A DNA stretch of 4,613 bases from a virus (lineage: Duplodnaviria; Heunggongvirae; Uroviricota; Caudoviricetes), in the IMG/VR virus record IMGVR_UViG_2731957954_000006, positions 1-4,613 of that record. One strand, written 5' to 3'. Positions 1-4,613 of the stretch are shown here, piece after piece (the first letter of the stretch is position 1; every line of letters begins with the position of its first letter). The notes beneath the pieces were generated by a model. The model was given only the letters and a program-made list of their open reading frames with translations, did no database searches and was not told the DNA's origin. The position numbers and the translations under genes were made by a program.

Positions 1-404
1 CCAACAACCAGTTCGGTCTGGGAATTTATCTGTATACCGATGTAGCGTTACCTGACGTCGTGGCGATGACCGGGACTGGTAACCCGTTCCTGATGTCGTT
101 CTTCACCCAGACCACAGACGGCAAACTGAATCTGATGCATCACAAGAAAGCCGGAAACACAAAGTTGGGCGAGTTCGGGAATTACAGTAACGACTGGCAG
201 ACGCTGGAGCTGGTGTTCACCGCCGGCAGTGCCACGGTTACTCCGAAACTGAATGGAGTGGCTGGCCCGGCATTCCAGGTCATAAAAGACAGTCTGACAG
301 TGGGACTAAATGCACTGACGCTGACGGATATTACCAAAAATGCAACGTATGGCGTTGAGATAGAAAGTCTGGTGCTGGAGATAAATGCACCGGCATCATC
401 ATAA
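1..404 (+). CDS. 3' end of a larger late-region ORF (5' end lies outside the window); function not assignable
   Basis: The frame ending at TAA 402-404 is open back to the window edge (hand translation of 3-59 gives NNQFGLGIYLYTDVALPDVV with no stop), so the GTG at 60 in the ORF track is not the real start. The translation is protein-like but I recognise no motif. Its position directly upstream of the holin matches the large ORF that lambdoid prophages carry between Q and S. Confidence 0.6.
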   Translation, partial: NNQFGLGIYLYTDVALPDVVAMTGTGNPFLMSFFTQTTDGKLNLMHHKKAGNTKLGEFGNYSNDWQTLELVFTAGSATVTPKLNGVAGPAFQVIKDSLTVGLNALTLTDITKNATYGVEIESLVLEINAPASS

Positions 405-489
405 AAAGTGAGCCAGTCAAATGGAAGGTATCGTTAAACTCACCGGTAGTGTCAGTGGGTCGTCTGAGATGCCTGCATGAGTTATCAGA

Positions 490-519
490 GCCATCAGTAC
501 TTAACTGGTGGCTTTTTTT
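490..519 (+). terminator. Rho-independent terminator-like hairpin upstream of the holin
   Basis: GCCATCAGT (490-498), loop ACTTA, ACTGGTGGC (504-512): a 9-bp stem with one G-U pair, followed directly by TTTTTTT (513-519). It lies 86 bp after the upstream ORF stop and 36 bp before the holin start. Confidence 0.55.
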
Positions 520-554
520 ATTGTTGTCAGCTTCCGGATAACGGGAGACGGGGT

Positions 555-770
555 ATGTACCAGATGGAAAAAATCACAACAGGTGTGTCATACACCACGT
601 CAGCGGTGGGAACGGGCTACTGGTTCCTGCAGTTGCTGGACAGGGTTTCCCCGTCTCAGTGGGCGGCAATAGGCGTGCTGGGGAGTCTGCTGTTTGGGCT
701 GCTGACATATCTGACTAACCTGTATTTCAAAATCAGAGAGGACCGTCGTAAGGCGGCGCGGGGGGAGTAA
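555..770 (+). CDS. S: Class II holin, phage 21 S21-type pinholin (71 aa), with dual-start motif
   Basis: The translation [71 protein letters not shown] closely resembles S21 as I recall it (two TM segments, charged C-terminal tail [13 protein letters not shown]). ATG 555 and ATG 564 form the M-x-x-M dual start typical of antiholin/holin pairs. SD GGAGA at 544-548. The track ORF starting at 477 would run through the terminator hairpin and is rejected as the start. Confidence 0.9.
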
Positions 771-774
771 AGCG

Positions 775-1416
775 ATGAAGAAAAAATACGAACTGGGTGT
801 TAAAGGGATAAATAATTATCCGGATAAGATTACTGTTACTGTGGCACTGGAAATTGGTGGGTATCCGTCACTGTTGTTGCCAGATGTGGCGATTAGTCTT
901 GACCGTACTGAAGGTGCCACGCTGGAGTTTTACGAAGCTGAGGCGAAAAAGCAGGCGAAGCAGTTTTTCATGGATGTTGCTGCCGGGTTATGTGAAGGGA
1001 ACGAACCGTTGCCGGAAAAGCGCCCCATAATTTTAGAGGCGCAGGATGTGTTGATAACCTACAAAGGAAAGCTACCGGGAAGAATTACTGGTTCTCTGAA
1101 GATGCCGCCGTCAACACTGCGGTCAGAAAAAGAGGCGTCTTGTCTGCAGTCTGAGTACTCCATTACGGTTAAAAGTGCCGGAGAGGAAGGAAATAAACGT
1201 TATTTTATTGCGTCTGCACCTGATAAAGATCAGGAATGGGAGTGTAACCGGCCATCCTTTGTTGTATACGGAGATGGCGGGAAAATAACCATCTCAGAAA
1301 ATGGGAAATTAACACCGCCATCGCACCAGCATAGTGAGGCGCTCATTGAATTTGCCATTGATTACCTGAAGAACAATAAAAAGCAGGGGCTGATGAAGCG
1401 CCATGGGCTGTGTTAA
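775..1416 (+). CDS. Hypothetical 213-aa soluble protein inserted between holin and endolysin (possibly DUF1327/YdfR-like; unverified)
   Basis: ATG 775 lies 4 nt after the holin stop, with SD GGGGAG (762-767) inside the holin 3' end. The ORF is long and uninterrupted with a balanced, hydrophilic composition and no N-terminal signal peptide or TM segment. The same position in E. coli Qin prophage is occupied by ydfR, but I cannot confirm homology from memory. Confidence 0.75.
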   Translation: MKKKYELGVKGINNYPDKITVTVALEIGGYPSLLLPDVAISLDRTEGATLEFYEAEAKKQAKQFFMDVAAGLCEGNEPLPEKRPIILEAQDVLITYKGKLPGRITGSLKMPPSTLRSEKEASCLQSEYSITVKSAGEEGNKRYFIASAPDKDQEWECNRPSFVVYGDGGKITISENGKLTPPSHQHSEALIEFAIDYLKNNKKQGLMKRHGLC

Positions 1417-1584
1417 TGCTCTGGCGATAATGCCGAGAGTCACAGGTGTGAGATGTCCATACGGCTCAGCCTGAATGGATTTTACTGCATCGTGTTCTTG
1501 TGGGAGGAGTAAGAGGCACTCTGATTTTACCCGCTCATTTATGGCTTGCAGGCATAAATCATAATTATGTTGATCGTTATGCAT
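1309..1584 (-). CDS. Candidate small convergent ORF (91 aa) in the holin-endolysin spacer
   Basis: Minus-strand ATG at 1582-1584 is preceded by AGAGGA with a 6-nt spacer (reverse complement of 1585-1597). The first 55 codons or so lie in otherwise non-coding DNA; the last 36 overlap the 3' end of the 213-aa ORF. No recognisable family. Confidence 0.3.
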   Translation of the reverse strand: MHNDQHNYDLCLQAINERVKSECLLLLPQEHDAVKSIQAEPYGHLTPVTLGIIARALTQPMALHQPLLFIVLQVINGKFNERLTMLVRWRC

Positions 1585-1712
1585 GGTTAATCCTCTACTG
1601 AAATTGTCAGATATATTTCAGCCATCAGGAAAAACGCCAGTGTCCTACCGCTGGCGGGCTGAAGATTTAACATATCCAGGGATTCGGAACCGATAAATCC
1701 TGATAAATATCC

Positions 1713-2246
1713 ATGAACACCAAAATCAAATATGGCCTGTCGGCTGCCGTTCTGGCGTTGATTGCCATCGGTGCGCCTGCGCCTGATATTCTCGACCAGT
1801 TTCTGGATGAAAAAGAAGGTAACCACACAACGGCATACCGTGATGGTGCGGGTATCTGGACCATCTGCCGCGGTGCCACAATGGTGGATGGTAAACCTGT
1901 TATTCCGGGCATGAAACTGTCGAAGGAAAAATGCGACCAGGTTAATGCCATTGAACGGGATAAGGCGCTGGCATGGGTGGAGCGCAATATTAAAGTTCCA
2001 CTGACCGAACCACAGAAAGCGGGTATAGCGTCATTCTGTCCCTATAACATTGGCCCCGGTAAGTGTTTCCCGTCGACGTTTTATAAGCGGCTGAATGCTG
2101 GTGACCGCAGGGGAGCGTGTGAGGCGATTCGCTGGTGGATTAAGGACGGTGGCAGAGACTGCCGTATCCGCTCAAATAACTGTTATGGTCAGGTATCCCG
2201 TCGTGACCAGGAGAGCGCGCTGGCGTGCTGGGGAATCGACAGATAA
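1713..2246 (+). CDS. R: SAR endolysin, T4-lysozyme-type muramidase (GH24), 177 aa
   Basis: The N-terminus KYGLSAAVLALIAIGAPAP is a Gly/Ala-rich weakly hydrophobic signal-anchor-release segment. The catalytic triad spacing E-x8-D-x5-T is present (EGNHTTAYRDGAGIWT). Overall layout resembles R21. No convincing SD upstream of ATG 1713. Confidence 0.9.
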   Translation: MNTKIKYGLSAAVLALIAIGAPAPDILDQFLDEKEGNHTTAYRDGAGIWTICRGATMVDGKPVIPGMKLSKEKCDQVNAIERDKALAWVERNIKVPLTEPQKAGIASFCPYNIGPGKCFPSTFYKRLNAGDRRGACEAIRWWIKDGGRDCRIRSNNCYGQVSRRDQESALACWGIDR

Positions 2247-2340
2247 GCAGAATATTTTGCTGAAAAATAAGGTATGGCCACGCGGGCGGATAACACGAAA
2301 TCCTGCGAACTGGCGAAACGTAAGTGAATAAAAGTAAAAA

Positions 2341-2372
2341 CCCCGTTTGTTGGCACCAAGCGGGGTTTTGTG
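2341..2372 (+). terminator. Terminator-like hairpin after the endolysin (possibly bidirectional)
   Basis: CCCCG (2341-2345) pairs with CGGGG (2361-2365), with partial extra pairing TTGG/CCAA inside; followed by TTTTGTGTTT and preceded by AAAAA (2336-2340). Confidence 0.5.
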
Positions 2373-2402
2373 TTTCTGACCTTGAGTAAGGCAAGGGAGA
2401 AC

Positions 2403-2585
2403 ATGGCGAAGTATAAACGAATTCTGTTGAGGTTGACTATGAAAAATGGCCTTGAACTGAAAGCGCCTGTAACTGATGACATCAGCAGAGCACTGGCTTT
2501 TGCCATTAAGTGGGTGGCGGTCGGTGTTGCTGTGTTCCCGATGCTGTATGGGCTGGCAAAACTGGTCATTGCGTTGAAATCGTGA
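2403..2585 (+). CDS. Small membrane protein, 60 aa, basic N-terminus and one C-terminal TM segment
   Basis: Strong SD AAGGGAGA (2391-2398) 4 nt before ATG 2403. Translation [60 protein letters not shown]. The GTG at 2370 used by the track lies inside the hairpin and is rejected as the start. Confidence 0.55.
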
Positions 2586-2599
2586 AGGGAGGATTAAGC

Positions 2600-2731
2600 A
2601 TGTCAGACAAACTCATAACGCTGGCGAAGATCCTCTGTGTAATTGTCGGCATTTCATTTTCACTAATGCTGGTTGCTCTTTTTCTTTCCATGGCCTGGAT
2701 GATGTTGTCTTCGTCGGGGTTGCTGGGGTGA
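2600..2731 (+). CDS. Small membrane protein, 43 aa, single TM segment
   Basis: SD GAAGGGAGGA (2585-2594) overlaps the stop of the preceding small ORF, with ATG at 2600. Translation [43 protein letters not shown]. Its TGA stop (2729-2731) overlaps the Rz GTG start (2728-2730) as GTGA. Confidence 0.5.
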
Positions 2732-3201
2732 ACATAAACCGAATGCTTTCCGCGTTTATCGTTATTCTGCTGGTGGCCTGTGGTGCGCTGTGGATGGCAA
2801 CAGACCATTACCGTGATAACGCGATTACCTACAAAGCGCAGCGCGATAACAAAGCCAGTGAACTGAAGCTGGCGAACGCAACCATTACTGATATGCAGGT
2901 GCGCCAGCGCGATGTTGCTGCGCTCGATGCAAAATACTCGAGGGAATTATCCGATGCGAGAGCTGAAAATGAAACTCTGCGCGCTGATGTTGCCGCTGGT
3001 CGTAAGCGCCTGCGGATCAACGCCACCTGTCCAGGCTCCGTGCGTGAAGCCCCCACCACCTCCGGCGTGGATAATGCAACCGGCCCCCAACTGGCAGACA
3101 CCGTTACACGGGATTATTTCACCCTCAGAGAGCGGCTGATGACGATGCACAAGCAACTGGAAGGGGCACAGGACTATATCCGCACTCAGTGCCTGAAATA
3201 A
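2728..3201 (+). CDS. Rz: Rz inner-membrane spanin (i-spanin)
   Basis: Strong resemblance to lambda Rz as recalled ([45 protein letters not shown] ... [27 protein letters not shown]), with an N-terminal TM segment and coiled-coil body. The start could be GTG 2728 (coupled) or ATG 2743. Confidence 0.9.
2954..3139 (+). CDS. Rz1: Rz1 outer-membrane lipoprotein spanin (o-spanin), embedded in the +1 frame of Rz
   Basis: Translation [61 protein letters not shown] has a lipobox (VSAC), a proline-rich stretch and the conserved [14 protein letters not shown] core of lambda Rz1. It lies wholly inside Rz. Confidence 0.85.
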
Positions 3202-3551
3202 GTTTTGTTGATGCGCCGTATCGTCGCTGTATTCCCTCATTAACAGAGACCGCAGCCCGACAGGGAGACTCCTCTGCGCGAGTGTGCGGGGATAATCAAA
3301 AACGATACACACCGGGGTTTACCGCGTTAACGGAGCGCGGCGTTGTCCCCTCATAGTCGCCTGTCCGGTGCGATGGTGGAAGAAGCCGGATGTTTATCAC
3401 TATTAATTGATGACACAGAAATGGATTCATTGAATTTCAGCACGTTTTTGTATTCGTGTTATTGAACATCTGTTAATTTTACTTTTAACATATTGATAAT
3501 AAAAAGAGCTGTAAATCTTTAGATGAGTCGATTTTGTCCGGGGAAGTTCAA

Positions 3552-3692
3552 ATGGATTTTATGCTGACGGTTTCTGGTGTGGTTATCCTGTCCATTGCTT
3601 ATACTGCAGATAAATATGGCTGCCATTTGTTATCACGTATTGGCGCTTATTGTTCGTTGATGCTGATTTTCTCGTCGCTTTTTTTTGAGTAA
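3552..3692 (+). CDS. Candidate 46-aa hydrophobic small protein in AT-rich island
   Basis: ATG 3552 is preceded by GGGGAAG with a 5-nt spacer. Translation MDFMLTVSGVVILSIAYTADKYGCHLLSRIGAYCSLMLIFSSLFFE. The ORF is followed by a T-run and sits in a locally AT-rich segment (about 3400-3720). Confidence 0.25.
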   Translation: MDFMLTVSGVVILSIAYTADKYGCHLLSRIGAYCSLMLIFSSLFFE

Positions 3693-3824
3693 GTTATATT
3701 AATTATAACAAATAATTTTCTGTGTTATTTTTTCAGGCTATCCCGTCAGAGGGGAAGCCTGTACTGCCGGGGAGCAAATGGAAAACTGATGTGTCCGGTA
3801 ACTGCGTGTTCTGTGAACACCATG

Positions 3825-4010
3825 TTACTTAATTATGTAATTCATACCCGAACTCTCTGTTGACAGCCTTCTTCTGCAGGCTTCAATAACCCACGCTGAA
3901 AAGTTTCCTGAACCTTTCAGATCAAGAGCGATGTTAATTTGTTCAATCATCTGGTTTGGAAATCGGATGTTGCGGGTTGTTGTTCTGCGGGTTCTGTTCT
4001 TTGATGACAT
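3825..4010 (-). CDS. Small YlcI/YnfO-like (DUF3950-type) prophage protein, 61 aa
   Basis: Translation MSSKNRTRRTTTRNIRFPNQMIEQINIALDLKGSGNFSAWVIEACRRRLSTESSGMNYIIK resembles, from memory, the small proteins encoded next to Nu1 homologues in E. coli cryptic prophages (ylcI by nohD, ynfO by nohQ). A ribbon-helix-helix-like fold is possible. Confidence 0.6.
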   Translation of the reverse strand: MSSKNRTRRTTTRNIRFPNQMIEQINIALDLKGSGNFSAWVIEACRRRLSTESSGMNYIIK

Positions 4011-4165
4011 AACGTTTCCCCATATTCAGTGTTGCTGATTTGTATTATCTGAAGTTGCTTTTACGTTAATTTGACGCAGATCAATTAATACGATACCTGC
4101 GTCATAATTGATTATTTCTCGTGGTTTGATGGCGTACACACATGTTGTGATAAACCTTATATAGA

Positions 4166-4180
4166 TGATAATCATTATCA
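4166..4180. promoter_or_regulatory. Perfect 7-1-7 palindrome TGATAATCATTATCA, Fur-box-like
   Basis: Seen directly in the sequence; matches the Fur operator inverted-repeat model tGATAATnATTATCa. Further GATAA-type hexamers lie just upstream (TGTGATAAACC, TAGATGATAAT). It is about 37 bp left of cosN. Confidence 0.3.
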
Positions 4181-4204
4181 TTTCGTGGGTCCTTTCCGGC
4201 GATC

Positions 4205-4404
4205 CGACCGGTTACGGGGCGGCGACCTCGCGGTTTTTCACTATTTATGAAAATTTTTCAGGGAAAATCGTGTCGGTACTTCTCGAATATAACTTTTTGT
4301 TTTTTTTAATATTACATCCGTAAAGGTCCGACATGAAAGTGTCCGAAAATGCCTTTTTCTGGCGTTTTCATGTCGGGCCTTGTATTTGATAATGGGTTGT
4401 TTTC
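4205..4404 (+). other. cos: Lambda-type cohesive end site (cosN with flanking cosB)
   Basis: CGGTTACG|GGGCGGCGACCT|CGCGG matches the lambda cos junction, with the 12-nt cohesive end GGGCGGCGACCT at 4217-4228. The downstream CACTATTTATGAAAATTTTTCAGG matches the lambda cosB proximal region. The nu1 start follows at 4405. Confidence 0.85.
4324..4380. promoter_or_regulatory. Inverted repeat in cosB (candidate terminase small-subunit binding sites or RNA hairpin)
   Basis: AGGTCCGACATGAAA (4324-4338) and TTTCATGTCGGGCCT (4366-4380) are reverse complements at 14 of 15 positions, separated by 27 nt, about 25 bp upstream of the nu1 start. Confidence 0.35.
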
Positions 4405-4613
4405 ATGAAGGTTAATAAAAAGAGGCTTGCCGAAATTTTCAACGTGGACCCGCGGACGATTGAACGCTGGCAGTCTCAGGGACTCCCTTGCGCCTCCAAA
4501 GGTAGTAAGGGCATTGAATCTGTATTTGATACTGCCATGGCAATTCAGTGGTATGCGCAGAGGGAAACTGATATCGAAAACGAAAAGCTCCGCAAAGAAC
4601 TGGACGATTTGCG
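4405..4613 (+). CDS. nu1: Terminase small subunit Nu1 (N-terminal part; continues beyond window)
   Basis: Translation [69 protein letters not shown] aligns by eye with lambda Nu1 (MEVNKKQLADIFGASIRTIQNWQEQGMP ... IENEKLRREVEELR), including the winged-HTH region. Absent from the ORF track because it runs off the window end. Confidence 0.9.

Follow-up and report, generated by a model that had tools for sequence, protein, structure and literature searches.

The closest described relatives of the open reading frame studied here are gp05 of Stx2 phage 86 (YP_794052, 268 aa) and an ORF in the prophage of Escherichia coli O104:H4 2011C-3493 (L005:6076-6882), which represent the same gene at the same position. 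In phage 86, the genes are arranged in the order S - gp05 - convergent orf6 - R. YdfR of E. coli K-12 (Qin prophage, P76160, 103 aa) occupies the same slot, essQ-ydfR-rrrQ, consists of the N-terminal domain (N-domain) only and overlaps the endolysin start (ATGA). Moreover, ORF47 of phage BP-4795 and the 114-aa YdfR of Stx1a and Stx2c phages are found directly after S; they end right after the N-domain ('...GSLKTPPLA'), 50 nt from R, and have neither a C-terminal domain (C-domain) nor a convergent gene. Phage-encoded modulators of RNase E are known in T4 Srd, phiKZ Dip and T7 gp0.7, all of them products of early or middle genes of virulent phages. T4 RIII is a soluble cytoplasmic antiholin cofactor that has been proposed to act with the holin and is not encoded beside it.

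The DUF1327 family, to which YdfR belongs, had been called functionally uncharacterised in the original prediction. This is almost the case, i.e., one experimental lead to RNase E and RNA exists for K-12 YdfR, which was recovered in a two-hybrid (BACTH) screen with residues 1-72 being sufficient (Gopel et al., RNA Biol 2026, PMC13232886). For the full-length protein, a two-hybrid signal was obtained with Rne1-597; in purification, Rne1-598 eluted together with Strep-YdfR, as did DNase-resistant nucleic acid (RNA), whilst on ydfR overexpression few transcripts changed and growth was unaffected (PMC13232886). The interaction was shown for K-12 YdfR only, from overexpression, and could be RNA-bridged (PMC13232886). 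A literature search for DUF1327 returned nothing useful, and YdfR or DUF1327 are unmentioned in the passages of a Stx-phage lysis-cassette survey that were retrieved by term search.

The window, i.e., the whole stretch of 4,613 bp that we analyzed, is the complete contig LJZY01000082.1 of draft assembly GCA_001440495.1. From the ORF list together with Pfam, phrog and NCBIfam profile searches, it is the late region of a lambdoid prophage with the following features:

First in window order, before the pinholin: NanS-p/SASA-type esterase gene, 3' end only
555-770, plus strand: S21-type pinholin gene, 71 aa (PF04971, E=2.3e-32; phrog_9876/phrog_20, holin; 555-770 is also the annotation of the source contig)
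760-767, plus strand: Shine-Dalgarno-like GGGGGGAG of the YdfR-family ORF, inside the last holin codons, read from the sequence
775-1416, plus strand: YdfR-family ORF, 213 aa, ATG start
1309-1584, minus strand: convergent truncated ORF, 91 aa (phrog_1853)
1713-2246, plus strand: R21-type SAR endolysin (lysozyme), the next late gene (PF00959, E=2.8e-25; phrog_7)
2403-2585 and 2600-2731, plus strand: two small hydrophobic (membrane) ORFs of 60 and 43 aa (phrog_1115, phrog_4906)
3825-4010, minus strand: YlcI/YnfO-family DUF3950 gene, just upstream of Nu1

A hydrophobic stretch is visible in the translated N-terminus of the endolysin. Past the small membrane ORFs, the order is Rz/Rz1, the YlcI/YnfO gene and the start of Nu1.

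The ORF at 775-1416 exists between pinholin and SAR endolysin as originally described, with both neighbors identified by Pfam matches. Its start geometry was also read correctly: the holin stop TAA (768-770) is followed by the spacer AGCG (771-774) and the ATG at 775, i.e., the ORF starts 4 nt past the holin stop, and the G-rich GGGGGGAG containing GGAG lies in the holin coding sequence. GGAG and a spacer of 3-4 nt after the holin stop are shared by eight related loci including K-12 essQ-ydfR, where the spacer is 4 nt long as in the window. From this geometry we infer that translation of the ORF is coupled to that of the pinholin. In agreement with the absence of a transmembrane segment stated before, the maximal Kyte-Doolittle mean over 19 residues was 1.18 and the GRAVY score -0.48; the protein has a pI of 6.8 and is soluble by hydropathy. 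Holins and antiholins have at least one transmembrane segment. Since the 213-aa protein has none by Kyte-Doolittle analysis, it is predicted to be neither holin nor antiholin.

Membership in the YdfR/DUF1327 group, initially a guess, was verified. The ORF matched PF07041 over aa 1-100 (model positions 1-88 of 93) with 149.3 bits and E=3.7e-44 at a gathering cutoff of 25 bits, and phrog_1085 with E=1.3e-116, which is far beyond chance. Homologues in phage 86, BP-4795 and RefSeq genomes are named 'YdfR family protein' in GenBank/RefSeq. The position between a class II (S21-type) holin and an R21-type lysozyme, with a start 3-4 nt after the holin stop, is likewise that of the family, and the same layout is found in K-12 Qin, BP-4795, phage 86, PhiR5_1 and a further locus (L011). 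N-domain DNA occurs in 3,105 of 5,426 complete E. coli genomes (~57%), with a median of two and up to eight DUF1327 loci; among 50,697 phage records it was found in 101, mostly Stx1a and Stx2c phages. In Pfam, DUF1327 was the only match, and NCBIfam and PADLOC scans of the ORF and its convergent neighbor gave none; neither protein matched a defence or toxin-antitoxin component model in the three collections. The suggestion of a superinfection or defence cargo thus found no PADLOC defence-system signal behind it. Moreover, Pfam, phrog and NCBIfam profiles revealed no similarity of the ORF to known antiholins or lysis regulators. The family of the ORF is hence already known and annotated, and what the window holds is an ordinary, damaged allele, not a new lysis factor.

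The damage became apparent in comparison with the closest relatives. In blastn searches, the best matches, i.e., Stx2 phage 86 and the prophage of O104:H4 and related strains, aligned to the window in two parts, separated by 321 bases that the window lacks. Window positions 1-1401 are 100% and positions 1402-4613 are 99.94% identical to the O104:H4 2011C-3493 prophage, and the segment missing from the window corresponds to L005:6703-7023. The ORF accordingly divides into the following parts:

775-1113, plus strand: DUF1327/YdfR N-domain, aa 1-113, intact (PF07041; 100% identical to the O104:H4 copy)
1114-1242, plus strand: variable acidic linker or middle module, aa 114-156, pI 4.8 (from alignments of relatives)
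1243-1401, plus strand: retained first half of the C-domain, aa 157-209, beta-meander and first helix (alignments A3/A4/A6)
1401/1402, no strand: deletion junction, where 321 bp of all close relatives are absent (blastn against phage 86 and O104:H4 2011C-3493)
1402-1416, plus strand: non-native tail of the ORF, HGLC and TAA, antisense of the convergent gene (protein alignment, DNA junction)

Residues 1-209 are identical to the O104:H4 268-aa ORF and differ from phage 86 gp05 by one substitution, G8V; N-domain and linker are thereby collinear with a full-length two-domain member, and past R209 the window protein departs from the 268-aa form. The intact locus has the 268-aa YdfR-family ORF, then a 9-nt gap and a convergent 104-aa ORF. 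Compared with phage 86 and O104:H4, the plus-strand gene of the window has lost its final 59 codons with the stop, the spacer of 9 nt is missing, and on the minus strand the final 43 codons are gone, again with the stop. A single 321-bp deletion has thus joined codon 209 to antisense sequence of the convergent gene, leaving both genes truncated. The original prediction had missed that the last four codons and the stop are non-native and that the 3' 108 nt of the ORF overlap the convergent 91-aa ORF at 1309-1584; this overlap exists because, after the deletion, each frame runs into the antisense of the other. These alignments show that the window ORF is an allele, truncated at its 3' end, of a two-domain late gene of the YdfR family, and that its lambdoid prophage is essentially identical to one of O104:H4.

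The prediction had also implicitly treated the 213-aa ORF as an intact, purpose-built protein. The open frame and the good start context agree with this, but the last four codons are antisense-derived and 59 conserved codons are gone. At least 54 complete genomes with at least 99% identity all have the full version, the best 40 of 55 full-coverage genome matches all contain the 321 bp (40/40), and a 60-nt junction probe was absent from the 5,426 complete E. coli genomes. We therefore regard an intact 213-aa protein as scarcely credible. Decay to a pseudogene in close homologues had been named beforehand as a finding that would count against the prediction; our result comes near to this, since the window copy itself is the 3'-deleted allele and the homologues are full-length. 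The inverse derivation, in which the 268-aa form would have arisen by insertion, was rejected, because relatives with 31-40% identity already have both the C-domain and the 104-aa partner in full length.

We also considered that the deletion is not biological, i.e., that the source strain has an intact 268-aa gene and that the contig was mis-assembled or stems from a chimeric library molecule. The exact 213-aa protein and the junction are on record only on this one short 4,613-bp draft contig, and the several DUF1327 loci per E. coli genome complicate assembly. However, both flanks match the same O104:H4-type prophage, and the index lists the contig in two samples. Near the breakpoints there are no repeats longer than 7 nt, and the 7-mers present are out of register, so a graph assembler would have had no path to join. 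A de Bruijn mis-join is thus an unlikely source of the junction, documented as it is on a single short draft contig, and we consider an artefact distinctly unlikely overall. The junction GCGC|CATGG (1397-1406) creates an NcoI site, CCATGG, which is absent in the parental sequence, and has no flanking microhomology; the site is probably a coincidence. An engineered origin suggested by this site was dropped, as no evidence supports it.

To judge what the deletion removed, we compared homologue collections, in which the family is modular, i.e., composed of the DUF1327 N-domain (~aa 1-113), a variable middle and a conserved C-domain. The N-domain of the window is 93% identical to that of BP-4795 ORF47 and the 114-aa proteins and 45% identical to K-12 YdfR over aa 1-77. 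Its AF2 model is a beta-beta-beta-helix fold, with 10-residue block means of pLDDT between 64 and 87 over aa 1-70. The linker is swapped for other modules, a coiled coil among them, in relatives of 211, 287, 296 and 325-333 aa. In contrast to K-12 YdfR, the window protein has the linker and half a C-domain, and 296 nt with an antisense gene precede R.

The C-domain has ~110 aa and the pattern ...PSHQHSE.LIEFAIDYLKNNKKQGLMKRIGRCMGYLQVAAEIEALA...DF..PPFK..P..W..PGLTYLK.RI, and no Pfam model covers it. With a diverse alignment, AF2 modeled it as a three-stranded meander and four helices (pLDDT 82.8, pTM 0.74). The model confidence and a dN/dS of 0.17-0.42 indicate that this is a real conserved domain. 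Structural relatives of the C-domain were found neither in the PDB nor in BFVD, and no sequence or fold relative of either domain indicated a biochemical function. The window is cut where helix 2 of the model begins. Of the invariant pattern H..I..L...GR....LQ.AA...P.K...W..PG..YL, H, I and L are all that remains in the window; the 59 deleted residues include 13 of the 16 invariant columns, and three of the four helices are gone. With this loss, the remaining half is predicted to be unable to fold as in its relatives. The window ORF is a descendant of the long two-domain subgroup (268-333 aa), but no longer an intact member of it. C-domain DNA was detected in 777 complete genomes, all of which cover at least 80% of the domain. 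The majority of this DNA lies outside any annotated feature, and RefSeq/PGAP calls the open 268-aa frame of O104:H4 a 336-bp pseudogene, 'YdfR family protein, incomplete, missing C-terminus'.

Among 1.84 billion representatives, an exhaustive HMMER scan found only 71 clusters. These include proteins of 266-314 aa with 31-40% identity, and because such distant relatives keep the order of N-domain, middle and C-domain, the two-domain form appears to be the old, ancestral architecture. The proteins of 103-117 aa, including K-12 YdfR, would then be N-domain-only derivatives. Most loci encode N- and C-domain in one fused protein. L006-L010 have them as two neighboring ORFs in reverse order (4001-4642, 4670-4897), and this fission with retained adjacency argues that they work together. 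There, a 213-aa protein of middle and C-domain begins 3 nt past the holin stop, and a complete, divergent DUF1327 ORF of 75 aa comes next; the loci also have an additional, different minus-strand ORF of 95 aa. More than 200 contigs, Stx prophages among them, have the split, order-swapped arrangement. Another variant, P0049 (305 aa; 275 contigs), carries an unrelated C-terminal module, ...THLASDCFIAHSFGGFHEAIKHDVERSPG..., instead of the conserved C-domain. The S-R slot is a hotspot of module exchange. In L018, the most distant full-length relative, the gene is located upstream of the holin, not downstream; what is conserved is the association with lysis genes, and not the exact slot. Between this YdfR-like gene and the pinholin is an ORF of 189 aa (L018:963-1532) that has predicted membrane segments and matches no Pfam family.

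The second gene hit by the deletion is the convergent one. In the window, its native codons 1-61 (1402-1584) are followed by 30 antisense-derived codons (1312-1401) and a stop (1309-1311); AGAGGA is located 6 nt upstream of its ATG. The intact gene (L005:6892-7206, minus strand, O104:H4 2011C-3493) encodes a soluble 104-aa protein of phrog_1853 without a Pfam match. A scan for a sigma-70-like promoter of the minus-strand gene was negative, and two hairpins upstream of it were no better than shuffles (z -1.0 and -1.6). In the distant metagenomic locus L019, a full-length homologue of the 104-aa protein (40% identity) is again encoded convergent to a C-domain gene, with a 6-nt gap, and the pair adjoins a holin-like ORF and a GH108 endolysin. 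The pairing is thus conserved, but not obligatory: in the common 296-aa form, the gene directly adjoins R and an antisense gene is absent, and only 90 genomes have the 104-aa gene compared with 777 for the C-domain, at megablast sensitivity.

These data bear on the possibility that C-domain and convergent gene are an accessory pair, of a toxin/antidote or a lysogen-expressed moron type, that was lost together because neither is dispensable alone. The convergent arrangement with a gap of 6-9 nt recurs in a distant locus where the partners are ~35% and 40% identical, one deletion truncates both genes in the window, and, as a minus-strand gene in a late operon, the 104-aa partner is reminiscent of bor and similar morons expressed in lysogens. 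The genome counts, the 296-aa form, the promoter scan and the PADLOC result speak against it, and we judge an accessory pair improbable.

On the Q-dependent late transcript, the YdfR-family gene would be transcribed with the lysis genes, and its start 4 nt past the holin stop, with the Shine-Dalgarno sequence inside the holin, would have it translated in step with the pinholin, yielding, as infection ends, a soluble protein of the cytoplasm. The N-domain of this protein would then engage the catalytic N-terminal half of RNase E, or RNA. As the window N-domain corresponds to the RNase E-binding stretch of K-12 YdfR, aa 1-72, we tentatively suggest that YdfR may be a late-infection modulator of host RNase E or RNA turnover rather than part of the lysis machinery in the membrane. 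If this lead holds, the concept of a phage protein retuning host RNA decay would be shared with T4 Srd, phiKZ Dip and T7 gp0.7. In contrast to these, YdfR is the product of a late gene in the lysis cassette, and no sequence or fold similarity was detected.

An alternative would be that YdfR proteins are cytoplasmic lysis-timing regulators that act on the C-terminal tail of the pinholin like an antiholin cofactor, in a fixed ratio set by translational coupling. T4 RIII would be the analogue in position and concept, without homology. In favor of this, the gene is invariably found beside lysis genes, its start in E. coli is 3-4 nt past the holin stop whichever module leads, and its distant relatives L018 and L019 lie just upstream of a holin. 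Yet phage 21 and most Stx2a phages lyse without YdfR, the N-domain is rare among phage records, similarity to known lysis regulators was absent from the profile searches, and the sole interaction data concern RNase E (PMC13232886). A timing regulator hence appears unlikely to us. For the window as a whole, we favor with good confidence the 3'-truncated YdfR-family allele and, far more tentatively, a late RNase E/RNA role as the mechanism. The window copy could retain N-domain activity, as the natural N-domain-only forms of 103-117 aa presumably do, and any contribution of the C-domain and of the 104-aa partner is gone from it.

A broader and more doubtful proposal is that YdfR was ancestrally a two-domain lysis-cassette factor in which the N-domain docks to RNase E or RNA and the C-domain acts with the ~104-aa partner, and which, produced together with the pinholin, retunes host RNA decay or lysis. 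If true, over half of the E. coli strains, including those with Stx phages, would undergo such retuning as infection ends, and the window would be a naturally occurring double knockout that affects the C-domain as well as its partner. Taken alone, the window ORF adds little, being a damaged copy of an annotated gene; of interest is the family, i.e., a soluble protein tied to the pinholin in ~57% of complete E. coli genomes and in many Stx1a/Stx2c phages, with one recent link to RNase E. Experiments may be guided by the apparent ancestral two-domain form, by a C-domain outside Pfam that is mostly unannotated in RefSeq, and by the conserved convergent partner. As the late transcript also includes stx, the release of Shiga toxin could change if YdfR has a role in the stability of late mRNAs or in the timing of lysis.

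Some further observations concern the neighboring genes. The holin frame is open from the ATG at 477, corresponding to 97 aa, and its family-matching part begins with M-Y-Q-M (555/564). The S71 holin of phage 21 has a basic residue in its dual-start motif; the M-Y-Q-M sequence is a possible dual-start motif without this residue. Strong hairpins with T-runs that resemble intrinsic terminators are located on the plus strand in the late operon, just upstream of the holin (487-515) and just after the endolysin (2337-2369), and are presumably read through by Q-modified polymerase. An Rfam scan of the window matched no family. The two small membrane ORFs occupy the interval between endolysin and Rz, where phage 86 and BP-4795 have an ant gene, and the second one overlaps the GTG start of Rz. 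The neighborhood of the DUF3950 gene is the same as in K-12 Qin, where ynfO is next to nohA.
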